Below are positions 2,033 through 43,462 of a DNA stretch of 64,000 nucleotides, one piece after another. Numbering within the stretch: the stretch's first letter is position 1; each line of letters starts with the position of its first letter. The position numbers and the translations under genes are program-made. The stretch is taken from positions 247,224 through 311,223 of the forward strand of contig ML996694.1 of the NCBI GenBank assembly GCA_010356995.1. The letters are read 5' to 3'. The notes below the pieces were generated by a model. It had not been told where the DNA came from. It did not search any database and saw only the letters and a program-made list of their open reading frames with translations. Source of the DNA: Trichodelitschia bisporula (lineage: Eukaryota).

Positions 2033-3100
2033 ACTTTTCGGCGATTTTTTTTCCTTTGGATTCTTGGGATATTACGGGCAGGATTGGGATGGGATGGGAT
2101 GGGCTGGCGCTGGACAGCGCATTTTGGATAGGATTGGGAACTGGATCGGAGTGGAGGTGTTTGTGTGTCGGATTAGCGCTACTGTCATCGGGTTTGTGAC
2201 TTTCTCTTTGGTCTTTTTGCTTACCAAGCCTCAAAAGGCTGTTGCCGGTTTCACGATGGCATCTGATACTGTATGTATGCTCGGTATGGTTGTACGTGAG
2301 AAGTCTCAAAATCTTGTTGGTGGGAAAGGTGGCGGGTGTTGAAGGAGTCATGGCGCAGCAGTGGAGAGAAAGGCATTCCCTTGCTCACTTTGTAGATTAC
2401 TCAGGCTTGCGAAAGCATCTCGGAATATATCTCGCGGCGACAGCTGCACTTAATCCTTTGCTGCCACTGCAAGTGAAATGAAGTGAAGTGGCTGAGCGGT
2501 CCGGGGTGCTGGTTCTAGTTGTATCTATGAGGTTGAGTAGGGGCGCCGAGATATCAGAACTTTCCTCTGCCGAAGCGAACTGGCTCCTGTGCCTTCCTCG
2601 GCCGGAGATGGATCAATGGCAGAATGCCTTATGGAAGCTTTGAGTTATAATTGTGAGGCATCATGAGCCGGGGCCACGAAGGCGATGGGTCCTACTCAAT
2701 CAGCTTCACCTCCGGGCCATACCCGCTTGGCTCTTTCCTCGTCACCGACCTTCCTAAAACGATATCCTGCCTTTTCAGTTATAGCTTGGCTTGCAACTCC
2801 CTCGCACAGACCGTCAAAGACTGCTTCAAATTCTCACTGTCAACATCTACCTCTCCCTCACTCTTACATCCTCATCTTCTTCTCCCCACCCTCACGCACC
2901 CAGCCTTAGGCGCTTCCATATTATCAATCATCAATCATCATTCATATTCATCCTCTTCTCCCCACCCTCACTCTCCCGGCCTCGGGCGCTCCCTTATCAT
3001 CACTCATCAATCATCAATCATCATCTTATGCCTCTCCCCATCTTCTTTCCTTTTCTATACATCACTCCTTCCTGCCTTATATTCTGGCTCAGCGTCGTCT

Positions 3101-3475
3101 GAGTGGCATGATCCGAGAGCCCAACAGCCCCTTGCACCTGTAGGTTGCTCGCCTTTTCGCCTATATACTCTGGCAAAGCGTCGCCTGAGTAGCATGGTCC
3201 GGGAGCCCAACAGCCCCTTGCACTCTGGGTCCCTCCTCTCTTCGCCTCATCTCGCCAAACACCGCCTCACCACATCAGTCAGCCATATTCGGTTCCGGTC
3301 GTTCACTCACTGCTCATCGGCGCACTGAGCACTCGCTTTTTCCTATATACGCCATTGCCTTAGAGGCTCGTCATATAATACCTTCACGATGGCGCAGTCA
3401 GTGCACACTCGGAACGTCCCAAACAATTCGGCTCCTTTCAAATACCTTCAATATAGCGCAGTCAGTGCACGCTCA
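3101..3475 (+). repeat. Cluster of short imperfect direct repeats
   Basis: gagtggcatgatccgagagcccaacagccccttgcac (3101) vs gagtagcatggtccgggagcccaacagccccttgcac (3187); aataccttca..gcgcagtcagtgcac at ~3377 and ~3441. Confidence 0.75.
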
Positions 3476-3559
3476 TAGCGTCCTGGACCATTCGGTTCCG
3501 CCCCGTATACCTTCGCTCACGGGGGTCTCTTGCCCTCGTGCGAAGGCTGCAACTCAGTA

Positions 3560-12514: not shown

Positions 12515-15346
12515 ATGCCCTCCACCGCCCCCGCCGACGACGACCCCGAAACGCCCATGGTGCTCGCCCGCCCGCGCCGCGCCAACGCCGGCTCCCACAT
12601 GTCCAAGCTCCTCGCCCTCGCCGAAGCCGAAGACGCCGAGCAGGCCGCCGCCTACGGCGAAATCTTCGCCGAAGCCCCGGATGATATCGAGTTCACGGCT
12701 GAGGGCGCCGACGACGGCGATGTCAGCCTGAGCAGCAGCAGCAGCGAGGACGAGAATGCGGGCGAGGAAGATGAGGGTGAGCGGGCTTTGCGCCGCGAGG
12801 AGCGTGGTGCGGCGGGCAAGCGCAAGCGCGAGTCCCTGCTGCAGCAGGCGATGAAGCGTGCGCGGGCGAAGACGGCGGCCAAGGCGGCGAAGGCGGTCAG
12901 GCTGGCGGAGGATGCATCATCGGCCGGAGATACGGCAGCTGTGGGTACAGCGGGGACAGCGGAGCGTCCGCGGAAGCGCTCTGAGCGCGTGTCGTGGCTG
13001 CCGACGGCTGACGACGGTCCCACGCGCGCGTCCTCGCGTAAGCTGGCGCAGATGAACCGCGCGGCGACACACGAGCGACTGAAGGAGAAGGAACAGCATC
13101 GGCTGCGCACGGTGGCAATCATGAAGGCGGCAGAGCAGCGAAAAGAGGGGACAAAAGCGAAGGTGCTCACACAGGCGGACCGGTTGGCCGCCGCCGCCGC
13201 GACAGAGCGACAAAATGCAAAGAGTTTGAATAAATGGGAAGAGACGGAACGGAGGCGCGTGGAGGAGCAGCGGGCACGGCTGGCGGCGCTGAAAAATCGG
13301 AAGCTTGAGGGGCCGGTCATCACGTATTGGAGTGGGCAGGCGGTTTGGCGGGGGGATACGCTCGTGTGGGTTGGCAAGCCTAGGGAAGAGAAGAAGACGG
13401 CTGCGAAAGGGCCGGGTATTTTGTGCGACAACAATAGCGCCCCGCCGACGCGGGAGGGGTCTCCCGCGGTGACATTGCAGGATCAGGCAAGCAAGAAGCC
13501 GGATGAGGAACTTCAGGGGGAGAAGAACGAGCAGCCATCCTCAACAACTCCCGTTCATTCGGAGAGCAACACGATCGACAAGGAGCCCAGCAACAACACC
13601 ATCAAAGTGGCTAAGCCCAATGCTACTACACCGAGCAACGACACCAAAGACGCCAACTCGCAGGCTACCACCCAAAGCACATCCGACGAAGCCACCATCG
13701 TCGTCCAACCCCTGAAGCGCCCCGCGTCACCTCCCGCTCCCAGATCAACCCTCCCTTCACAGCCTCCAGTCACTCAACCCTCCGCTCCGCCCAATCAAAC
13801 CTCCGCTCCGCCCAATCAAACCTCCGCTCCCCTCCCTCAACCCTCCGCCCCGCTCCCCACTAAACCCTCTGCTCCACCCTCTCAACCCTCCGCTCCACCC
13901 TCTCAACCCTCCATCCCGACCAGCACCCAAATCTCCTCCCCACCCACTCAACCCGCTCCCAAACCCCAAACCCTCGGCGAAATCCTCACCGCCCAGGCCA
14001 AATCAAACCCATCCGCAGACGACCACGATCACCCCATGCTCGATGCGCCCAGCCCCACAAAACCCGAGTCGTCGGCTGAGGAGGGCCCGTTTCTCGCCGG
14101 CATCATGCAGTGGGCGAATACCCCGGCGGGGCAACAGTCTTCGGGTGCGGTTCCGGCTTCGGCTTCGGCTTCGGTTTCGGTTCCGGCTTCGGTTTTGGTT
14201 TCGGCTTCGGCCCCGGCTTCGGCACCGGTTCCGGGCTCAAACTGGACCTCGATTCCGGCTTCTCCTTCAGCCCCCTGGCTCCCATCGGGTCCCCCGCCCG
14301 TACTGCCCGGCTGGCCCGCAGACCTCGAACCCCGTCACCAATTCCAAGTCTCTACCCGGGTTACTCCAGAAGAGCGCACAAGACTCGAAGCCCTATGGCA
14401 AGCGCAACAGCCCCCACGCCAACACCCACAAGTCCAAAACCGCATCCCCACCCCACCCCCCACCATCCCCCACCCCGTATCCACACATCCCGCCCCCCTC
14501 ACGAAATCCTCCTCTTCCGAATCCTCCTCCTCCGAACCCCAAACCACAACCGCAACCTACATCCTCCTCACCCTCCCCCCCCCCAACTCCACCACCGGCA
14601 CCCCAACCGAGCAACACACCCGCGACCGCGCCTCCCTCCTGCGCACCCTCCTCTCCTGGCCCGCGTCCGTGCCCACCACTGCGCCCTCCGCCCGCGCCAA
14701 GCTGGCCGCGCAGAAGAAAACGCCCTGCGTTGTCACTGGCGATCCGGCGCGATATGTCGATCCCCGCACCGGGCTCGCGTATAGGGATGCCAAGGCCTTG
14801 GCTGTGCTGAGGAAGGTTACTATGGGTGGATATCGCTGGTTGAATGGCGTGGGGGGCGGGATTTGGGTTGCGGTTCCGAGGGTCGAGGTCCCCGCTGACA
14901 CGACTGCGGGCGCTGGTTCTGGCAACGCGGTGGCCGGGGTGGGCGGTGTGAGGCCCGCACGGGGTGTGCCGGAAGGTTTCTGGAATCCGGATGCGGTTAA
15001 GCCGGCGCCTGCTTCGTTGTCCACGCCTGCTGATCCTGCGCCTGGGGGCCCGGCTCCGTCGTCTGCAACGCATTCCACTCCTGCTGTCGCGGGGCGCAAT
15101 CCAGCATCTGCTCCGCCTGCTCCGCCCGCGTCAGCTGCGCCAAAGGCCTCGGCGCTCGATGCCTCGTCTGTAAGCGTTGCGCCTGCGGCCCCGTGCGTGC
15201 CGCCCGGCTCTGGGAGGGGGAGTCCGGTGGTTTCGGTTGTTATTCCTGTTTCGCGCGAGGGGGTGGGAAGAGCTGAGGTGGAGGGTTCTGGACAGGGTGC
15301 GCCTGCGGGGGTGGGGGAGAGGCCGGATGTGAGCATGGAGGGGTAG
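12515..15346 (+). CDS. VPS72: SWR1 complex subunit Vps72/Swc2/YL1
   Basis: N-terminal YL1 motifs (RPRRANAGSHMSKLL, LTQADRL..A..TE..N..SL) and YL1_C (CVVTGDPARYVDPRTGLAY), separated by a long Pro/Ser-rich linker. ATG at 12515. Confidence 0.85.
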   Translation: MPSTAPADDDPETPMVLARPRRANAGSHMSKLLALAEAEDAEQAAAYGEIFAEAPDDIEFTAEGADDGDVSLSSSSSEDENAGEEDEGERALRREERGAAGKRKRESLLQQAMKRARAKTAAKAAKAVRLAEDASSAGDTAAVGTAGTAERPRKRSERVSWLPTADDGPTRASSRKLAQMNRAATHERLKEKEQHRLRTVAIMKAAEQRKEGTKAKVLTQADRLAAAAATERQNAKSLNKWEETERRRVEEQRARLAALKNRKLEGPVITYWSGQAVWRGDTLVWVGKPREEKKTAAKGPGILCDNNSAPPTREGSPAVTLQDQASKKPDEELQGEKNEQPSSTTPVHSESNTIDKEPSNNTIKVAKPNATTPSNDTKDANSQATTQSTSDEATIVVQPLKRPASPPAPRSTLPSQPPVTQPSAPPNQTSAPPNQTSAPLPQPSAPLPTKPSAPPSQPSAPPSQPSIPTSTQISSPPTQPAPKPQTLGEILTAQAKSNPSADDHDHPMLDAPSPTKPESSAEEGPFLAGIMQWANTPAGQQSSGAVPASASASVSVPASVLVSASAPASAPVPGSNWTSIPASPSAPWLPSGPPPVLPGWPADLEPRHQFQVSTRVTPEERTRLEALWQAQQPPRQHPQVQNRIPTPPPTIPHPVSTHPAPLTKSSSSESSSSEPQTTTATYILLTLPPPNSTTGTPTEQHTRDRASLLRTLLSWPASVPTTAPSARAKLAAQKKTPCVVTGDPARYVDPRTGLAYRDAKALAVLRKVTMGGYRWLNGVGGGIWVAVPRVEVPADTTAGAGSGNAVAGVGGVRPARGVPEGFWNPDAVKPAPASLSTPADPAPGGPAPSSATHSTPAVAGRNPASAPPAPPASAAPKASALDASSVSVAPAAPCVPPGSGRGSPVVSVVIPVSREGVGRAEVEGSGQGAPAGVGERPDVSMEG
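13770..13955 (+). repeat. Coding tandem repeat of ~21 bp (QPSAPPx) inside VPS72
   Basis: Repeated caaccctccgctcc(g/a)ccc units. Confidence 0.8.
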
Positions 15347-16000: not shown

Positions 16001-16214
16001 ACCGCTCCAGCGCATGCCCCATTTGCGTCAGCAGTATGGCCCGTCAACGCCAGGTGTGTCCCTCATTCACGCCAGCAGTATCCCTCATCCACGCCGGCAG
16101 TTATGGCCCGTTCGCGCCAGCAGTATGACGTGTCGAGTTGGTGGCGCAAGTGGACCCGTTCGCGGTGGTGGAGGTCGATCGGTTCGGGGTGATGCGGCTG
16201 AGGGTGGGAAGGTT

Positions 16215-16490
16215 GAGCGAGGTGATTGATGTGAGCGAGGTGGGCGAGATGGACGAGATGGACGAGATGGGTGAGGAAAGCGAGACGAGAGGTGAGCGAA
16301 GTGAGTGAAGATGGGCGCGATGGCGAGTGAGCGAGGTGAGCGAGGTGAGCGAAGTGAGCGAGGTGAGTGAGGATGGGTGAGGTTCATGCAGCTCTTCCGG
16401 TTTCTCAAGACATGATCGTGCGGCTCTTCCGGTTTCTCAAGACATGATCATGCGGCTCTTCAAGATATGATCGTGAGGCTTCTCAAGAAG
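16215..16490. repeat. GAGCGAGGT-type 9-bp repeats followed by a 32-bp tandem repeat
   Basis: (gagcgaggt)n at ~16215-16375; gctcttccggtttctcaagacatgatc(g/a)tgcg twice plus degenerate copies at 16391-16490. Confidence 0.8.
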
Positions 16491-19759: not shown

Positions 19760-19880
19760 CGCCTTGCTCCGTTGCTCCGTTGTTTCGCTGCTCAGTTGTT
19801 TCGGTGCTCCGTTGTTTCGTTGCTCCGTTGCTCCATTGTTTCATTATTGCGCTGTTCACATGTTCACATGTTCACATGTC
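19760..19880. repeat. Low-complexity tgctccgt/tgttcaca 8-bp repeats
   Basis: Visible 8-bp periodicity. Confidence 0.7.
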
Positions 19881-20025
19881 GTAGAGTTAATATCACGCAT
19901 TGTGAAGCACGTCTTTATACCGTATCGGACAAACTTCCGTTAACTGGTGGGCCCAATAGGTGGTCTCTCGGGTCTGTCCAACGGTGCGCCAAATCCTGGG
20001 ACAACGAGAAGATGTTACACAGCAT

Positions 20026-20248
20026 GCTTGGCTCGCCCGCCGTGGGGTCGATATGCTCGCGGAGCTGAAGCCTAGCTTGCCAGTCGTGGGGTGAATACGC
20101 CTCGCGGCCCCACGACCGAGCTTGCCTCTCGTGGGGTTAATACTCTCGCGACATGAAGCCTAATTTAGCTTGCCGTCGTGGGTTGACTGCGTTATACGTG
20201 AGAGATGTGCTGCTCCATTGGCCATAGCTTGGAATCTCGCGTGGGGGA
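20026..20248. repeat. Array of five ~45-55 bp degenerate units (AGCTTGCC-n-CGTGGGG)
   Basis: cgtggg(g) cores at 20041, 20085, 20130, 20177 and 20240, each preceded by (a)gcttg. Confidence 0.75.
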
Positions 20249-20315
20249 TTGTGGGGTGCCGTTGCGACTGGGGGGGCGGGATCGGCGGGCCGGTGCTGCC
20301 TTTGTGGCGTAGGAG

Positions 20316-20524
20316 CAAGGGCTGATCGAAAAGGTCATGTCCTCCCCCGCGACTACATAGACCTCCGCCCAGAGTCGGCAAGAGGGGAACATGACCTTTT
20401 CGGGTAACCCATGGGTGAAAATTTGTCGCCGTCCCCTGGAAAATTCTGGCTGCTTCTTGCTGGGTACTGTATGAAGCAAGGACTATTGGTGTGGGGGCGC
20501 AACGACTTTTTCACCCGGCCCTTG
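20316..20524. other. Double-hairpin structured element, related to the CEM1 intron element
   Basis: 14-bp perfect inverted repeat 20327-20340/20389-20402; gggtgaaaa/ttttcaccc at 20413/20508; closing caagggc/gcccttg at 20316/20518. Confidence 0.75.
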
Positions 20525-21165
20525 GGGAGGGGTAAGGCTGAGATGAGGTAAGCCGGGGGGCCGGGGGGCGTGGGGGCAACATTATAAAATGATGGGGTAG
20601 CGTGGGGCATTTGAGGAACCGTGAGGCGCTGAATGCGATGATGAGGCTTGTACTACGTAGGTCAGCCGTGAGCGGACTATGAGTAGATTAGAACTAGCCA
20701 TGGTGCGCTTCCATGTCTGCCGGGTGCCGCATTTCCGAGGAGAAGCGCACTACTAGGGTTCGCCGACCAAGGTCATTTTCAACTAACGACGGAATGGCCG
20801 CTATCGCAAGAGTAGGACAGCCTCGCAGCCTAACAGGACCATAATCGGAAGGACCAGCCTTCCTTTGGACTTTACCTCTCATAAGCCTCCGCGTGCGGCC
20901 TCTAGTAGCATGGCGGTCCTGCAAATGGACAGAAGGGTCCGGAGCCCATAGCTGAATTCGGTTAGCTGTAGGCCTTGTAGCCTAACATCCGCCTATGAAG
21001 TTGGCTTCGAGCTTATCTGGAGGCGCTTTGCACGAATGATACAATAGCCGACGAGGCTGAAATACTGGTTGACACCGAATCGGATGGGGCCAACAAGTCA
21101 ACTAACCCTCTAATCCCAAGCTACCGATGATCAGGCTAATTCACCGTTCCATCCAGAAAAAATCG

Positions 21166-21618
21166 CTAAAATCTCCTCTCCATCCCCTCGGCCTTCGGAC
21201 TCGTCTCCACAAACCCATGCCGCGCATACAATTTTTTCCCCTGCAGGTCCGCAATCAAGTTAACATACGCCCCTTCAGGCGCCTCCTCTTTGATATGATC
21301 AATCAAAGCATGCATGATCCAGTCGCCCAGACCACGCCGTTGATGCTCCGGTAAGATGGCAATGTCTACAATGTGGAAGTACCCTCCGCCATCACCGATG
21401 ATACGGCCCATACCAACGACCTTGTTACTGTCCAGGTGGAGGATATGTACCATGTACCAGGATCCAGCGAGGGCGAGTTCGGCCTGTGCGGCGGTGCGGG
21501 GCGTTAATCCGCAGCTAACGCGGAGGTGGAGGCACGCATCGATGCGAGGGGCCCGCGAGACGAGGATGTAACCCGGTACCGAAGAATCGGGCGCTATGGA
21601 ATCCTTTCGCTCATTCAT
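21166..21618 (-). CDS. GNAT-family N-acetyltransferase (intronless)
   Basis: VGMGRIIGDGG..FHIVDIAILPEHQRRGLG (acetyl-CoA motif A) and LYARHGF (motif B). Confidence 0.85.
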   Translation of the reverse strand: MNERKDSIAPDSSVPGYILVSRAPRIDACLHLRVSCGLTPRTAAQAELALAGSWYMVHILHLDSNKVVGMGRIIGDGGGYFHIVDIAILPEHQRRGLGDWIMHALIDHIKEEAPEGAYVNLIADLQGKKLYARHGFVETSPKAEGMERRF

Positions 21619-21887
21619 AGTAGCTTTGCAATTAACGTTCAAAATCTTTCCGTTTTTGGTTACCCGTTGTCCGTCAATTTAAGAGTTCGGGGCCTGACGT
21701 TCAAATCCCAGGGGTGGAGCGGACCCGCCTTGGCACCCTCAGCACGCAATCCCGCTCCGCTCAAACCCTTCCCCACTGGTAAGAAAGTGACGCAAGCGGG
21801 GTCTTCAGGGTTCAGGCCCTTGCCTCCGGTCTGAGCATTTTTATACTGCTTCCTTACATACACATATCGCCTTCTCCCCGCTCCACA

Positions 21888-23514
21888 ATGGCTTCTCCAG
21901 CGCGTACGCTGCTGCGCGGTCCCGCGCGGAGCTTGCTTGGCCGCGGACGCCACTTCGACTGGACGACAAGCGTCTGGTCCCGCTCTTCGACGCGTGGCGC
22001 TCACGGGACCGCGACAAGACGAAATATCAGCAACGAAGCCAGCGAGCCGAAGTCATCGAACCCGGCGCTCTCGTTCCCATGCCTAGACGCCGTAGAGTCG
22101 CGCTCAGCGAGTCTTCACCGGCGCTCGCTGACGGGCGGCCCGGAGCCGAGTTACACGAGCGGCAAGCACCAGACCTTCACATCCAAGGAGCCGATTCTCC
22201 TCGACTGGGGCGGCGTGTTACCGGAGTTTGATGTCGCGTACGAGACGTGGGGAGAACTGAATGCCAGCGCGTCCAATGCGATATTACTGCACACGGGGCT
22301 TTCAGCGTCGAGCCACGCACATAGCACGCCTGAGAACCCGCAGCCCGGGTGGTGGGAGAAGTTCATAGGGCCTGGATGTCCGCTCGACACCAGCAAGTAC
22401 TTCGTCATATGCACGAATGTGATTGGCGGGTGTTATGGGAGCACTGGGCCGGCGTCTGTTGATCCCGCGGATGGGGAGCGGTATGCGACGCGCTTTCCGA
22501 TATTGACTATGGATGATATGGTGCGCGCGCAGTTTCGGTTGCTGGATCACTTGGGGATTGGGCGGCTGTATGCGAGTGTTGGGTCGAGTATGGGTGGGAT
22601 GCAGTCGCTGACGGCTGGGGTATTGTTTCCGGATCGTGTCGGGAGGCTGGTGAGCATCAGTGGCTGTGCGAGGAGTCACCCATATAGCATTGCTATGCGG
22701 CATACGCAGCGTCAGGGTGCGTACCTTCTCTCTCTCCTTCTATTGTACTCTTGTGATGCTGCCGTATCTTTGACCTATCCGTTGACTCGCCGCAGTGCTC
22801 ATGAACGACCCCAACTGGAACCGCGGCTTCTACTACAACAGCATCCCACCGCATGCCGGCATGAAGCTTGCGCGCCAGATCGCGACAGTGACCTACCGCA
22901 GCGGCCCCGAATGGGAAGCGCGTTTCGGCCGCCGCCGCGCCGACGCCTCGAGACCGCCCGCCCTCTGCCCCGACTTCCTCATCGAGACCTACCTCGATCA
23001 CGCTGGCGAGAAGTGGTGCCTTGAGTACGACCCCAACAGTCTGCTCTACGTCTCCAAGGCCATGGATCTGTTCGACCTGGGTCTGGCACAGCGTCTGCGG
23101 ATCAACGCCTTGCGAGACAAGAACCACCATAAGCTCGCCTCCGCCGGTAATCCGAAAGTGAACGAAGAGTCCTCTGTTGTCTGCAACCTCAGGCTTCCGG
23201 ATGAGCCGTACCAGGAACAGGAAGACGATTTGGTCGCTGATATCGAGAGCCAAAAGGCGTCCTCCGCGCCGCCGCCGGATCTGGTCGCTGGCTTGCGGCC
23301 TTTGGTGAACACTCCGGCGCTGATTATGGGCGTGGCTAGCGATATCCTCTTCCCGGCGTGGCAGCAGCGCGAGATTGCAGATACGCTGCGGGCGGTTGGG
23401 AACCGCAATGTATCGCATGTGGAGCTGGGAGAGGAGCAGAGTTGGTTTGGGCATGATACTTTTTTGCTGGATTTGGAGAACGTGGGCGGCGGAGTGAAGA
23501 GGTTTTTGGGATGA
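21888..23514 (+). CDS. cysA: Mitochondrial MetX-family serine O-acyl(succinyl/acetyl)transferase, CysA/Cys2 type
   Basis: Presequence; [24 protein letters not shown], nucleophile [21 protein letters not shown]. Intron 22717-22795 joins the two ORFs. Confidence 0.85.
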
Positions 23515-23744
23515 AGACCTCCCGCAAGGGCGACGTTGTCCTTAGCGTTCTTGTACAGCTGATGGCGCTGAACCGGACATGGAATCATGTAAATACACAT
23601 GGTTGCGGTGAAGGATTTCACCTGTGCATCACTTTGGGGCTCGCACTTGCCTTCCGGTTCCTACAGATATCGTCGTCAAGTGCTTAGCGTCTCTACTCTC
23701 ATGTAACCCATACTCAGTAGCATTGAAAGCATTGGCTTCAATAC

Positions 23745-24968
23745 TTAAACTGCCTCCCGCACCTCGGCCCCAACAAGCTTATCTCCTCCTTGCTCCTTTC
23801 CCTCTTCTCCCCTTCCCTCGCCCTCCGCCATCTGCATCTCCCCAACCAACCCCACCCTCCTGTCCACCCACCGTCTCCACGGCCTGTAACACACCGCACT
23901 CCCCACCGCAGCCAGCACGAAGAGCCCACACACGCTCCCTCCGATAACATCATACCGCTCCCCAACCCTCGTCACGCCGCGCCAAAACGCGCTCTCCGCC
24001 GCCTTCTCCTCACCTACGATCCGGCTCCCCAGCACCAGGGCCTGCAGCGTACCCACCACCACCGCGACCAGCACCGTGGCGCCGGTGAGAACGAGGGAGA
24101 AGTACGTGACCGCAATATCATCCCGCACTAACCTCCCCGACTCCGCCCCACCCTGCCCCTCCTCATCGCTAGAAGCAGGCTTCGTCGCCCCAACATAAAG
24201 ACTCATCATAAGCGCACCGTCCGTGGTGTCGAGCGCCGCCATCCCCGCCGCAAAAAGCACCGGAAAAAGCAATATCAACCACAAACTCGTCCCCCGCGCC
24301 GCCTGCAGCGCACTAAGTCCCAACAATGCAATCTCACTGCTCGTGTCAAACCCGAGCCCAAACAACACGCCCAGCGGGTACATCTTCCACGGCCGATCCA
24401 CCAGCCTTGCTGCCCTCCCAACCGCACGCGCCAGCGGGCCCGAGGGCAGGACGAGGGCCGGGGCGTCCGAGGTGGGGTGCAGGAGGAGGGAGAGATGCCG
24501 GGCGAGTTTGTAGAGCAGAATACAGTTGAGGAGTCCGAGGAGCAGGAGGAATGCGGCGCTGACGGAGGAGCCGATGAGACCGCCTATGCGGCTGAAAGAA
24601 TCGAAGTGGGACGTCAGGGTGGAGGCGGTGGCTGCGACGCAGATTGCTGTTATGAGCACGATGGTTGAGTGGCCAAGGCTGAACCACAGCCCGACTGTTG
24701 CGGGCTTCTGGCCGGTTGCGACGAGGCGCCGCGTCATGAGGTCGATGGCGGCGATGTGGTCTGCGTCGAGCGCGTGGCGCAGGCCGAGGACCCAGGATAG
24801 GACGGCGGTGGAGATTAGGGTACGGTGGAAGGAGAGGACGATCCCCGCGACCACCCACACCGCGCCATTAGCGAGGATTAGAGATGCGATCGCGACTACG
24901 GCGCGGAAGGGGAGGGCGCGGAGGTACGGTGTGCGCGCGTGTAGGGCGGCGAGGCGGGGGGGTAGCAT
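23745..24968 (-). CDS. nic1: High-affinity nickel transporter, NiCoT family
   Basis: Signatures GLRHALDADHIAAID, FSLGHSTIV and GVLFGLGFDT. Confidence 0.92.
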   Translation of the reverse strand: MLPPRLAALHARTPYLRALPFRAVVAIASLILANGAVWVVAGIVLSFHRTLISTAVLSWVLGLRHALDADHIAAIDLMTRRLVATGQKPATVGLWFSLGHSTIVLITAICVAATASTLTSHFDSFSRIGGLIGSSVSAAFLLLLGLLNCILLYKLARHLSLLLHPTSDAPALVLPSGPLARAVGRAARLVDRPWKMYPLGVLFGLGFDTSSEIALLGLSALQAARGTSLWLILLFPVLFAAGMAALDTTDGALMMSLYVGATKPASSDEEGQGGAESGRLVRDDIAVTYFSLVLTGATVLVAVVVGTLQALVLGSRIVGEEKAAESAFWRGVTRVGERYDVIGGSVCGLFVLAAVGSAVCYRPWRRWVDRRVGLVGEMQMAEGEGRGEEGKEQGGDKLVGAEVREAV

Positions 24969-25318
24969 TGTGGCTTCGGGTTCGTGTCAACGACGATGTC
25001 GAGAATCGGGGTACGAGAAACTGATTCGAAGTTCGGATCCTGCAATTCGGGTAGCCCTCCGGGCGCAAGGCCCGAGGGAAAGTGCTTGCGACCCCGCCAA
25101 TGCCCAGTGTCTGCCCCGCCATGTTGCTATCACGAGTGTGGGGCAGCGGGGGGGGGCGGCGTCGCGCTAATGCACCGTTATCTGCACGCGATTTGCTACG
25201 GGGCTTACCTGAGCAGATCGTGGCGGCGGAGGACATTAGGAACATTCTCAGCCCTGTGCATATTATCATCGCGAGCTCGCCTGTCCCGAAGGAGTGTTCA
25301 CTGGAGTGGTCGTGATGT

Positions 25319-27207
25319 TCAGCCTTTGAATTTACTAAAACAAAGACAGGCATTTGTCCCGCCAAACCCGAAGCTGTTACTCAGCGCCACGTCCACGCGC
25401 CGATGCTGCGCCGAGTGCGGGATGTAGTTGCAGTTGAATTCTGAGGGTGGATCGCCGGGGTTGTCGAGGTTGAGGGTTAGGGGGATTACGTCCTGTCCAG
25501 TCTATCAGCGCACCCTCCTCCCCACGCCCACACTCAGCATCCGGGGCACTCACCTCCGCAACACTTTTAACCGCAAAAACTCCCTCCACCGCGCCCGCCG
25601 CTCCAAGTAGATGTCCAAGCGCACCCTTAACACTCCCGACATTAACCTCCACCGCCCTCGCCCACCCTTCCTCCCCAAGCAATACTTCCTTAACCGCCCC
25701 ATTCTCCGCCCGATCACCCAGCACCGTCCCCGTAGCATGCGCACTCACATAATCTACTTCCCGCGGCCTGCACCCGGCAAACCGCAGCGCATTCTCCATC
25801 GCCCGCCGCGGCCCCTCCCCATCCGCTCTCGGCTGCGTAACATGCCACGCATCACTACTGAGCCCATACCCGCGCAGTTCGGCATAGATCCGCGCACCCC
25901 GTGCCTTCGCGTGCTCTAGTTCTTCGAGGAGCATCACGCCCGCGCCCTCGGCGATGACGAATCCGCTGCGATCACGGTCGAAGGGCCTCGACGCACTCTC
26001 TGGCGTTTGAAAGGACGTAACAAGGCTGCGCGCGCGCGCAAACCCTGCAATTGCAAGCGGGTGAATGCACGACTCCGTGCCGCCCGCAAGAACGACATTG
26101 CAGTCACCATGCGCAATGAGCCGTGCTGCATCGCCGATGCTGTGCGCGCCGGTTGTGCATGCCGTAGCCGTAGCGTGGGTTGGGCCGCGGAAGCCGAATT
26201 TCATACTCACGTGCCCGGCAGCAAGGTTGATAAGTAGGCGGGGCACGAAGTGCGGCGAGACTTTCTTGTAGCCGCCCGTGGAAAAGGCGAGGGCTGTAGA
26301 GACGACTTCGTCGAGCGCGCCGATACCGGAGCCGATGTAGACGCCCTAGGTAGTGGGGTTTAGCATTGCGGAGAGGGTGTGGGTAAAGGGAGGGGTAAAG
26401 GGCTAGGTGAAAAAGTCGTGTCAGCTCCCCCCCAGCTGTTGTTAGAGACCAGCGACGAATGCCCGACACGACTTTTTCACCTAGCCCTTGGGTGAGTGTA
26501 CTACGGTCTCGGGCATAATGGGCGTTAAGGGTCCAAGGGCCAGCCGGAAAAGTGATGAGCTCCTTCCCCCGCGGCTTTTGGTGAGGCATATGGCCAGTGA
26601 ACCGGGGGGGGCGGGAACATCACTTTTCCGGGTGTTTTCTTCGGACCCTTAACATACATTCGGCCCGGCACCGTAGTAGCCATTGCAGAGCTGGACAAAG
26701 CATACTGTATCCCGCAAGTCCTCCTCCCGCTCCGGCCGCCATCCCGCGTCGTCCAGCGCCTCCGTCGCCGCGGCAAGCGCATACTGCGCAAAACGTGCTA
26801 TGCGCCGCTCCTCCTGTCTCAATTCAGCCGAAACCCCGTCCGCAAGCTTAGTAGACGTACACCCGGCTCTAACCAGTCACTCGCTCTCCATCCGCCTTCG
26901 GCCCTGGGGCCTTCGGGGATAGTCCCTGCTATCCGCACGGGGAGGCCGTCCCATTCCGCGCCCGCGAGGTGGCGGATGCCGGATTTGCTGGCGAGGAGGG
27001 CGGGCCAGGCGTGTTTTAGGCCTGGGGGTGGTTAGCTGGGCCGTTGATTGTGTGAGGAGGTAATGTGGATGGAGGTATAATGAGGGGATATGCGGCTGCG
27101 GCCGGGATATGCGCGCGGATGCTACGCCGGTGAGAAGGGGGAGGTGTACCAACGCCCAAAGGAGTGACGACTCCCAGGCCCGTAACTACGACGCGGCGCG
27201 CCGCCAT
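25319..27207 (-). CDS. CEM1: Mitochondrial 3-oxoacyl-ACP synthase (FabF/OXSM type)
   Basis: RRVVVTGLG, TACTTGAH (catalytic Cys), AHATGT, KGALGHLLGAAG, SNSFGFGGTNA. Introns 27149-27022, 26860-26814, 26705-26346 and 25553-25493. Confidence 0.92.
26398..26678. other. Intronic double-hairpin element (structured ncRNA or MITE-like)
   Basis: 25-bp perfect inverted repeat 26398-26422/26465-26489, followed by nested stems 26499-26514/26663-26678, 26524-26534/26643-26653 and 26544-26557/26618-26631. Confidence 0.85.
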
Positions 27208-27987: not shown

Positions 27988-29060
27988 ATGGCAGCGCCGT
28001 GCAACTTTCCAACTCTCATCATTGAAATCGTCGCGGAAATCGCAATTGCAAAAAACCTCAGTTTCCAGAAACTCTCCCGCCTTCTGCAGCCCGCATACCC
28101 GCCCAGCCCTTGCTTCGCGTTCCCCCCCCCCAAATCCGAACCAACCTCGCCGCTACTCGCCGCTATTCAAGCCACTCGCTTCCACTCGCAGCTTGCAGAA
28201 TCCGCGACGCAAAACAACTCGGCAGGGCACTGGCATTGAACGCCCGCGGTCTCAACTCTGCTCCGCCTATCTCCCTGCCCGCGTCTGACCATCCCGCCTC
28301 ATGATCCTAAGAGCTAATGGAAAGAGTGATGTCGTCTCCACTACTGCAAAAGACAGAGAGGGCGATATCGCCTTTTCTATCAGCCTATGTCCCGTCAAAC
28401 ACGCGACTGAAGGACTTCGGGCGCTCACTGCATCCGTAAACCGATCAGTGACAAAAATGATACCCGTAGCCGTCCCGTCCGCAAGACCGCTCCGGCCGCG
28501 CGGCTGCAACTTCCCCGTAGCCCTCTCCCGTGATTTCATCTTCCCCCGTCCCCCATCCCCGGTCCTGCAGACATGGCGTGGCGAATATCTCGTTCCCTAC
28601 GGGCCTGCAGGAAAACGGTTGGGCCAAACGAACACGCATGAAAGGATCTACGCCACCATCCCGCTAAAACCCCCACCGCAAACACGCAAAACGCAGACGC
28701 AGAGTCATGGCCCGCGCCCTGCCAATTGTCAAATGCCATGGCGATGCCTCCGGTGTTAGCGTTCTGCGCGCGATTCAGGTCATTGCTGGAGATGGCTCCG
28801 GGATTGTGGGGGCTGGGGGAGGGCAAAGGAAGTGGGTGAGGCCGGTAAGATGGGAGCGCTGGAACTTCCTAGCTTTTTGGCAGGATTCTTACGACCCAGC
28901 TTCCTGGCCTTTGGCTACGGTGCTGGCGGAGTTCTTGCGCGATGGAGGTGCTTGGCGTGGCGTCCGGCTGCTGTGTTGGGGACTGGGCGTGCAGAATCTG
29001 GAGTATGCGGGGTGCAAAGAGGTTCAGGGAGTTGATATCACGGTATTGATGTCGTCGAAC
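27988..29060 (+). pseudogene. Possible disrupted gene with an F-box-like N-terminus
   Basis: MAAPCNFPTLIIEIVAEIA loosely resembles an F-box start. Protein-like fragments continue in different frames with no clear introns. Confidence 0.25.
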
Positions 29061-39785: not shown

Positions 39786-40890
39786 AAGCTCTCATCTCAC
39801 CCGCTGAGCAACGGAATCCTCCGGACTCCGCACACCATCTCAACCTTTCCAATCCTTTCGCAACAGCACCACAGCATTTCAAGCGCCGTGAATCAACTGG
39901 CTGGCATCGTCAGATTCCATTATATCCTGTACACTAATTTATTAGTTGAATCGACGTGGTTGGTTGAACACAAAAATCTTTGACAATTATCCAGTCGGGA
40001 ATTTGTGACTGACTGACCGACCGACCGGTAAGCCCGGATTAGGTATCCGGCGCGGCCCGACGAGGTGCGCTCTCGAGAGCTCTCTTCCCATCCGCTGAGC
40101 GATAGAATCCGGCGAAATCGGGATATGAACTCGGGCCTTTCAAGCGCCTTAGCATCAGCACCGCTGCGTTTCTAACGCTGGGAATTCATTAGCCGTATCC
40201 ACATGGAAGGGTTGACACAAAAATTTTGGACAATTAATTCAGTCGGGGAATATGTAACCGACTGACTGACCGACTAACTGACCGGTAAGCTCGAATAGGT
40301 AATTGGCACGGCCCGGCGCGGTGTGCGCTCGGGATCTCTCGTCCCACCCTCTGAACAACGTAAGCAGCTAGTCTCGGATATGAACTCCAAGCTTTGCAAC
40401 ACTTTTGCATCGGCACCACCTCATGTCAAGCGCTGTAAACCACCTGACCGGCATCATCGAATTTATCTTCATGTAGTACATCAATTCACTAACCGTATGG
40501 ACGTGGAAGGTTTGACAAAAATATTCAGGGGAATTATTTAAGTCGGGAATGTGCAATCACCCAACCGACGGATCGGCAAGCCCGAGTCGATGCCTGTCCC
40601 GGAGCCGAGGGTTTAACCGATTATATCGATTATTAGATCATACCGATAGTACCGATTCATCGCAATCAAGCTCTCGTCCTACTCACCGAGTGACCGAATC
40701 CCGCTGTCCGTGGGACACGAACTCTAACCTTTACGACTCCTTAGCATCAGCACCGCCACATTTCCAGCGCTGTGAGCTACCTTACTGATATAGCCAGACA
40801 CAACCCTATCCCGTGAACCACTTCAGTACTCGTATCGAGGTGGAACGTTGGACACGGAGAATACCGACTGACTGATACTGACCTAACCGT
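39786..40890. repeat. Diverged tandem array of four ~255-335 bp units
   Basis: Units start at ~39786, 40077, 40333 and 40668. Shared blocks: agctctc..cc..ctgagc, gca(t/a)cagcacc..tttc.agcgc, gtggaagg.ttgaca, agtcgggaat, (gact/gacc)n-ggtaagc. Confidence 0.85.
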
Positions 40891-43118: not shown

Positions 43119-43462
43119 TTGGGATAGGTATCACGTCTTTTTGAGATCATTTCGGGATTGAAAAAGCAGGAACGGGGCATTTGACGATTCTGCATGGAGA
43201 TCCCGGAAGCATGATCACTTTGGGTTGGAAGTAGACGAGGCTCGTTCGATCTAGCTATGAAGAAACGCAATACAAGTCGCGCTGTGTCTAGCCGCGAACA
43301 CAATGCCTGGTATCCCGTGCGCCTATGCCCCTTAACGCCCTGTATGCACCATTGAACCCAATGCCCGAGACGTGCGAACAAACGATTATGTCCAACCCTC
43401 TTTCAGAGATCTTCTAAGCCGCTCCATGCGATGCTAGATCCCACCCATGCCCATGCCAGAGC

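Follow-up and report, generated by a model that had tools for sequence, protein, structure and literature searches.

Palindromic repeats with mirrored arm changes in Trichodelitschia bisporula are probably decayed members of a family of small DNA transposons without coding capacity

The window, that is, the whole stretch of 64,000 nucleotides of contig ML996694.1 that was analysed, has a GC content of ~58% and is nuclear DNA of a filamentous fungus, whose genes present short GT..AG introns, spliced according to the RNA-type contigs. It holds five units of one hairpin family, named x, y, B1, B2in and z, all of them within 8 kb. Hairpins x and y form locus A, B1 and B2in are located in an intron, and z is at 28308-28389. 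The Pfam-based gene reading of the window recognised no gene at locus A or at z, and the gene closest to locus A with a Pfam match encodes a GNAT acetyltransferase (21166-21678, minus strand). The original prediction, which had been made from the sequence alone, described locus A as an intergenic copy. The tRNA scan found none. The contigs of the RNA-type runs X3 and X4 leave 20000-20935 uncovered, which says nothing about the expression of locus A.

Locus A (20316-20524) is a 209-bp unit closed by the 7-mers CAAGGGC (20316-20322) and GCCCTTG (20518-20524). Hairpin x (20316-20413) has 30-nt arms with 23 of 30 positions in Watson-Crick pairs; its inner 12 nt, GAAAAGGTCATG (20328-20339), find a perfect complement at 20390-20401, and its fold z-score is -3.39 on the plus strand and -5.76 on the minus strand. 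Hairpin y (20410-20524, fold z-score -2.91) carries a right arm which reads CAAGGGC-CGGGT-GAAAAAGTCGT as reverse complement and a left arm CATGGG-TGAAAATTTGTCG, with indels that make the pairing imperfect. The fold z-score of locus A is -2.49. Regarding the three-way junction that had been proposed to enclose both hairpins, the 7-mers are in place and folding with DNA parameters returns the junction as the structure of lowest energy (-44.5), but it is absent from the RNA minimum-energy fold (-91.6 kcal/mol), which omits the CAAGGGC/GCCCTTG helix. Enforcing this closing helix gives -90.7, a penalty of just 0.9 kcal/mol for RNA.

The other site is a spliceosomal intron of 360 nt (26345-26704, minus strand), which hosts B1 and B2, in a beta-ketoacyl synthase gene. 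The exons flanking it match PF00109 in Pfam, one as far as profile position 112 and the other starting at 117. Contigs from X3 and X4 contain the spliced joint 26344>26705, in which 360 nt are skipped between CT..AC ends, equivalent to GT..AG on the minus strand; the shorter side of this joint measures 29 letters. An unspliced contig in the same runs covers 26316-26734 with the intron kept, and the sample of these runs shows no differences from the window in the intron sequence. Both splice sites fall outside the elements, with 52 nt between the acceptor and B1 and 26 nt between the donor and B2. Without B1 and B2, an intron of about 88 nt would remain, its two splice sites included.

B1 (26397-26490, 94 bp) is built on a perfect 25-bp inverted repeat, AAGGGCTAGGTGAAAAAGTCGTGTC, with arms at 26398-26422 and 26465-26489 and a fold z-score of -8.09. 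B2in (26534-26642, fold z-score -4.52) presents the left arm CAAGGGC-CAGCC-GGAAAAGTGATG. Its 12-nt stem GGAAAAGTGATG (26546-26557, complement at 26618-26629) belongs to a perfect 14-bp stem (26544-26557/26618-26631), and its right outer terminus is decayed. B2in is enclosed in turn by the B2 outer palindrome (26499-26678), the 36-nt arms of which (26499-26534 and 26643-26678) are 81% complementary. The fold z-score of locus B is -10.84. A partial third copy of the B2 outer arm was observed at 43322-43380.

To compare the units, the arms were aligned in register on the 12-nt box GRAAARGTSRTG, and nine arms were tabulated, including those of the metagenome locus L017 described below. From the outside inwards, the anatomy of the unit is CAAGGGC, a 5-nt variable linker, the box and a C-rich run. 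Since all the arms read in this order, each hairpin consists of two inverted copies of one terminal sequence of ~30-35 nt, and terminal inverted repeats are common to the family members tabulated. CAAGGGC is exact in five of the nine arms, with the variants AAAGGGC, CATGGGT and AAGAAAA in three; the box is matched by eight, and the right arm of L017 shows one mismatch. The aligned arms at 20316 and in the intron are present as first described. The box occurs six times in the window versus 0.13 expected, and none of 100 shuffles reached six, a control which is partly circular because the pattern came from these same sites.

Within each of x, B2in and B1, the 12-nt box is identical in the two arms. 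When the elements are compared with each other, the box differs at three positions for x and B2in, two for x and B1 and three for B2in and B1; the partner arm mirrors all of these differences, with none one-sided. This confirms the three mirrored differences out of 12 that had been noticed between x and B2in. By our own arithmetic, the chance of three right-arm changes falling at the same positions with complementary bases is ~1 in 5,900. RNAalifold, run on four rows that represent three independent elements (x and B2in once each, B1 in either orientation), predicted 24 pairs, 10 of them with both sides changed. The near match between a second pair of arms was also verified, as 20502-20526 and 26468-26492 are identical at 23 of 25 positions (92%).

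A covariance model was trained on x, B2in and B1 and used to search the whole window with the filters off and E up to 10; a model built from the four hairpins had been suggested in the original prediction. It returned 16 matches, comprising the six of the training elements on both strands (x, itself among the training sequences, scored 99.2 bits), two of z, one of y (a weak match at 20489-20526, 7.9 bits, E 5.4) and seven others with E of 0.23 or above. The new element z is a fifth, decayed copy of the family (match at 28306-28391, 28.2 bits, E 9e-6; 20.6 bits on the opposite strand). It spans 82 bp (28308-28389) and retains two arms, correctly ordered and spaced: the left arm reads TAAGAGC-TAATG-GAAAGAGTGATG and the other arm, as reverse complement, CATAGGC-TGATA-GAAAAGGCGATA. 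Over 30 positions its arms form 18 Watson-Crick pairs, eight G.T, three A.C and one other, and transitions account for 11 of the 12 mismatches between them. Four of the 12 core positions differ between the arms. Folded as DNA, z is no better than its shuffles (z-score 0.05); as plus-strand RNA, it folds well via G.U pairs (z-score -4.25).

The decay of the family is uneven. The arms of x and B2in carry 7/30 and 11/30 mismatches, respectively, none of them in the 12-nt core and 5-6 in the outer 12 nt, and the chance of a mismatch-free core is 0.016 for x and 0.0006 for B2in (own arithmetic). Neutral decay alone thus does not explain the perfect inner stems of these two elements beside decayed outer arms. 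Six elements show both of their arms: x, B2in and B1 have a perfect core, and y, z and one other copy from the same organism, whose arms are complementary at 13 of 18 positions by eye, have lost it. The proposal that pairing is kept despite sequence change is correct for the inner stems of x, B2in and B1. Concerning the type of mismatch, the wobble-type mismatches in B1 and B2in are five G.T and two A.C on the plus strand, and the plus-strand totals over x, B2in, B1 and z are 16 G.T versus seven A.C, a weak bias. The G.T excess could equally be due to strand-biased C-to-T mutation.

The flanks of the elements were analysed by setting the element end at the 7-nt terminus and comparing the three bases outside it, in the five elements with both termini. 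The triplets are perfect direct repeats in four of the five: B1 (GGT at 26394-26396 and at 26491-26493), z (TCC at 28305-28307 and at 28390-28392), L017 (GGC/GGC, 3/3) and the metagenome contig of L038/L039 (GTC/GTC, 3/3). In the latter two, the repeats can be recognised as direct rather than inverted because of the middle base. Locus A matches at two of three positions (GAG at 20313-20315 versus GGG at 20525-20527). By our own arithmetic, a perfect triplet would arise by chance with a probability of 1/64. Direct 3-bp repeats point to the footprint of a staggered-cut integration, which an RNA gene would not need. The flanks of B2in are inverted and not direct (GTC/GAC), because this element sits inside the outer palindrome. 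An alternative 5-bp duplication, GGNCC, was dropped, since 3 bp with the 7-nt terminus suits more elements. Locus A is tentatively taken as one unit, since x and y as separate insertions would have flanks matching at only 1/3 and 0/3 positions, respectively.

Further copies are found in the same organism. In the DNA run X1, parts of the elements are matched at 90-99% by seven contigs in addition to the source contig. Beyond the matches these contigs hold unrelated sequence, and their loose ends show variant arms and different flanks. The matches to B1 cover 26398-26451 (one contig) and 26437-26490 (two contigs), and four contigs match the B2in loop (26566-26615), at 26566-26600, 26572-26609 (twice) and 26577-26615. 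Other family copies were also found in the RNA-type runs. Since the X1 copies have other flanks, the family appears to be dispersed in the T. bisporula genome. Regarding the loops, which had been called unrelated, those of x and B2in indeed do not align with each other, but the B2in loop recurs at 90% or more in these contigs.

Relatives of the terminus are also present in metagenome contigs. A scan for CAAGGGC-N5-GRAAARGTSRTG gave at least 121 loci. Single matches make up 116 of the matches listed, namely 115 without an inverted partner plus the pair L009/L010. Among the matches listed, only L017 has an inverted partner within 1200 nt, with a score of 29 versus 13 or less for the others, and six AAGGGCTAGGYGAAAAWGTCGTGGCCACGC termini occur on five loci from four low-GC contigs (L017, L025, L031 and L038/L039). 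Each of these six sits exactly at the edge of a repeat, and the metagenome repeat copies are 81-95% alike. L017 holds at 1501-1783 a complete element of ~285 bp, whose 39-nt inverted repeats are 89.7% alike and whose right arm is identical to that of B1 at 25 of the 26 terminal positions. The MITE (miniature transposon, see below) terminus CAAGGGC with a 3-bp duplication is common to a GC-rich fungus and low-GC metagenome contigs. In the contig of L038/L039, an element of ~1.67 kb lies between the same termini; it is AT-rich and full of stops, and its separate open frames gave a weak match to HTH_23 (E 0.0055), below the Pfam cut-off.

Some other results of the metagenome scan should be mentioned. 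One of the low-GC contigs encodes a PNP_UDP_1 domain protein, which we take to fit the fungal NLR-like proteins. The loci L091, L018 and L053 look similar and were rejected, with the second arm absent from the flanks read. A recurrent set reads AAGTCACCCAAGGGCA...GGTGATGGG and is presumably a bacterial riboswitch. Viral contigs contain four single matches. The covariance model, applied to 20 of 125 loci, gave no match below E 0.1; the interiors of the metagenome MITEs are too long for it to bridge.

MITEs are short DNA transposons without coding capacity, which are cut and pasted by a transposase encoded elsewhere. With a probability of roughly three in four, the hairpins are decayed copies of a family of such elements, scattered through the fungal genome. 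The units measure 82-209 bp, under the MITE bound of about 800 bp, and no open reading frame was found inside them, only run-through stop-to-stop frames without family matches. The flanking 3-bp repeats, the shared MITE terminus and the dispersed copies all agree with the terminal-inverted-repeat family which was one of the two options of the original prediction. An autonomous element with the same termini was not found, and the terminus pattern is restricted to these loci in the window.

As a possible mechanism, a transposase encoded elsewhere or now extinct would have recognised the CAAGGGC-type ends. The element would have been excised and then reinserted via a 3-bp staggered cut, duplicating 3 bp of the target. 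Copies could have landed in gene-proximal DNA, including one intron, where they would be tolerated because they are spliced out together with it. The two insertions may have taken this intron from roughly 88 nt to 360 nt, quadrupling its length without stopping its splicing. The mirrored changes could arise because the two arms are the two ends of one element and evolve in concert. This could occur in two ways. A single transposase may have to recognise both ends, in which case subfamilies would differ alike at the two of them. Alternatively, one arm of the stably paired inner stem may be corrected against the other in replication, by template switching or conversion. Template switching at quasi-palindromes is a known process.

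The closest precedent found comes from filamentous ascomycetes, in which many degenerate MITE families have been described, such as the 13 EFT families of Epichloe festucae (PMC3227409). The elements described there are likewise short and non-coding, with terminal inverted repeats of ~30 nt, and highly degenerate; some subfamilies share the inverted repeats only, with unrelated interiors, and copies lie near or inside genes, with parents that are missing or remain as AT-rich relics (PMC3227409). The Epichloe parent relic, AT-rich and without a recognisable transposase as that text presents it, resembles the ~1.67-kb element of L038/L039 (PMC3227409). On the other hand, neither AAGGGC nor GCCCTT occurs in the main text of that study, the duplications in the rows considered of its Table 2 are AT or TA whereas those found here are of 3 bp and G/C-rich, and the units of T. 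bisporula, unlike the Epichloe MITEs of that text, are very short, with 82-115 bp per single hairpin, and often adjacent or nested (PMC3227409). A full-text literature search for the terminus found no relevant description among the papers listed.

Concerning the superfamily, target duplications of 3 bp are typical of CACTA/EnSpm and PIF/Harbinger among others, and in PIF/Harbinger the duplication is typically TWA. The family shares with both the 3-bp duplication and the terminal inverted repeats, and its terminus starts with CA. However, we take these termini not to be of the CACTA type and the triplets GGT, TCC, GGC and GTC not to correspond to TWA. The family would thus be compatible with these superfamilies by its 3-bp duplication, and it fits neither textbook pattern.

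Instead of a transposon, the palindromes could have been made and kept by replication or repair, through fold-back synthesis or template switching and with no dedicated transposase. Such an origin would suit the perfect inner stems with their decayed outer arms, the lack of a detected transposase and the position of B2in within a 36-nt outer palindrome of intron sequence with the inverted flanks GTC/GAC. Nevertheless, it leaves aside the direct 3-bp duplications, perfect in four of five elements, and a specific 7-mer terminus that is conserved and common to a repeat in unrelated contigs. Taken together, the duplications and the shared 7-mer argue for staggered-cut integration by an end-recognising enzyme. 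Moreover, x and B2in have in common an ACCC linker and TTCCC after the stem in their right arms, unlike their own left arms, so that simple fold-back copying of the left arms does not account for the right ones. This explanation is therefore distinctly unlikely.

The other option of the original prediction, a multi-copy structured RNA, would imply a functional family, such as small-RNA precursor hairpins or a cis-acting hairpin of introns or UTRs, in which selection keeps the pairing as the sequence drifts. This is what the mirrored changes suggest at first sight, with 3/3, 2/2 and 3/3 in the pairwise comparisons of x, B2in and B1 and both sides changed in 10 of the 24 predicted pairs. The perfect inner stems beside decayed outer parts, the copies which keep the B2in loop better than the arms and the plus-strand RNA hairpin that z holds through eight G.U pairs fit it too, and the RNA-type contigs contain B1 and B2 (in the intron-retaining contig) as well as other family copies. 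A partly comparable case is that of the hairpin RNA loci derived from MITEs, such as plant miRNA genes and fungal hairpin small RNAs, where transcription of a MITE yields a long, near-perfect hairpin.

Several results argue against this option. The comparison with Rfam that had been proposed gave no match at the gathering thresholds in the whole window, and a permissive search of 20000-27000 found only MIR904 (E 0.61, 22.3 bits versus a gathering threshold of 80) and Guanidine-III (E 0.45), both of them well under their thresholds. Pairing is no longer perfect in half of the six elements, namely y, z and one other copy. The G.T sites of B1 and B2in are A.C on the minus strand, the sole strand for which a transcript is shown there, so the wobble pairs are mostly on the strand opposite to the transcript. 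The 3-bp duplications at the flanks, like the homologous MITE termini in other contigs, belong to DNA integration rather than to RNA genes. The covariation comes from only three independent elements, and inverted transposon ends yield the same signal. A structured RNA is thus very unlikely, and this seems to be a MITE family of the ordinary kind, apart from one feature that is left unexplained. It should be noted that 'compensatory base-pair changes', which serve as an argument for structured RNAs, are mimicked exactly by the inverted ends of a small transposon. For this reason, arm covariation in palindromic repeats needs checks of flanks, copies and strand before an RNA is claimed.

The idea of introner-like elements, mobile sequences that create introns with their own splice sites, draws on the presence of two of the five elements in an unusually long, spliced intron of 360 nt and is hardly tenable with the donor 26 nt and the acceptor 52 nt outside the elements, an intron of about 88 nt remaining without B1 and B2, and locus A and z outside any recognised gene. 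A related case is that of the symmetrical (stw)introns of the Hypoxylaceae, whose terminal inverted repeats are the intron ends themselves, with no flanking duplications, and for which the authors oppose DNA transposition in the text considered (PMC8469720). They resemble the present family, as presented in that text, in being fungal intervening sequences in multiple copies with long inverted repeats able to form hairpins (PMC8469720). In contrast to that description (PMC8469720), the splice sites are here not part of the elements, the flanks carry duplications, and some copies are found away from recognised genes.

Returning to the MITE family, the perfect inner stems beside decayed outer ends are a small unexplained point, which bears on arm-to-arm correction in short palindromes. 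Such a correction would account for the perfect stem, as would selection on the hairpin. A bolder possibility is that the inner 12-14-bp stem is actively kept complementary as the outer transposon ends decay, so that the family would be more than dead debris; we consider this unlikely. It could operate by hairpin-templated correction acting on short nuclear palindromes or, alternatively, by selection on a function of the RNA or DNA hairpin, for example as a small-RNA precursor or through an influence on splicing or transcription. If it were true, with stems that covary and a loop conserved in one subfamily, the family would be a transposon-derived structured element in the middle of its domestication.

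Finally, transposon ends are usually the best-kept part of the element. In the copies matching the B2in loop, the loop is kept at 92-97% and the arms at about 70-75% (arms by eye), and this higher conservation of the loop is an oddity for the MITE reading.

A fifth copy of the hairpin family, element z, lies at 28308-28389 and is flanked by TCC on both sides. This copy is decayed, and nearly all the differences between its arms are transitions. As RNA, the fold of the + strand is kept through G.U pairs (z-score against shuffles of -4.25), whereas there is no such folding of the element as DNA (z-score of 0.05).

Concerning the 360-nt intron of the beta-ketoacyl synthase gene that hosts the copies B1 and B2, it was kept whole in RNA-type contigs from two runs (26316-26734), with depths of 35.6 and 16.2. 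The spliced form co-occurs with these contigs in both runs, at depths of 99.7 and 35.5. The intron-keeping contigs may represent pre-mRNA, intron retention or DNA carry-over.

On the minus strand, the region 43322-43380 partly resembles the B2 palindrome's outer arm. The two share GTCTCGGGCAT and GGGCGTTAAGGG as exact 11- and 12-mers, which are collinear and separated by 17 extra bases. This region may be a solo arm belonging to a different repeat family.

Secondary hairpins at the family ends tend to be found in the metagenome relatives as well. One metagenome copy (L038, 700-735) carries a local palindrome, GGCCACGCCAA..TTGGCGTGGCC, directly after the terminal repeat. Among the metagenome matches listed, a conserved context, (A/G)GT(C/G/A)AC(C/T)CAAGGGCA..GGGAAAAGGT(C/G)ATGGG, recurs in chance matches (L016, L028, L029, L035, L042, L050, L055, L056, L062, L075, L086, L090 and L097), and presumably it resembles a bacterial riboswitch-type leader.

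Other repeats are also present in the window. Four short-period tandem arrays, C-rich or G-rich in composition, were located at 13758-13931 (period of 21 nt), 14124-14243 (6, or 12/18, nt), 16204-16382 (9 nt) and 19764-19859 (8 nt), some of them probably within coding or low-complexity regions. Three direct repeats of 64 nt each, 67-75% alike, start at 40120, 40375 and 40712 (40120-40775), spaced by 255 and 337 nt, and three pairs of adjacent tandem duplications of 59-76 nt occupy 2862-3013, 3078-3223 and 3377-3499.
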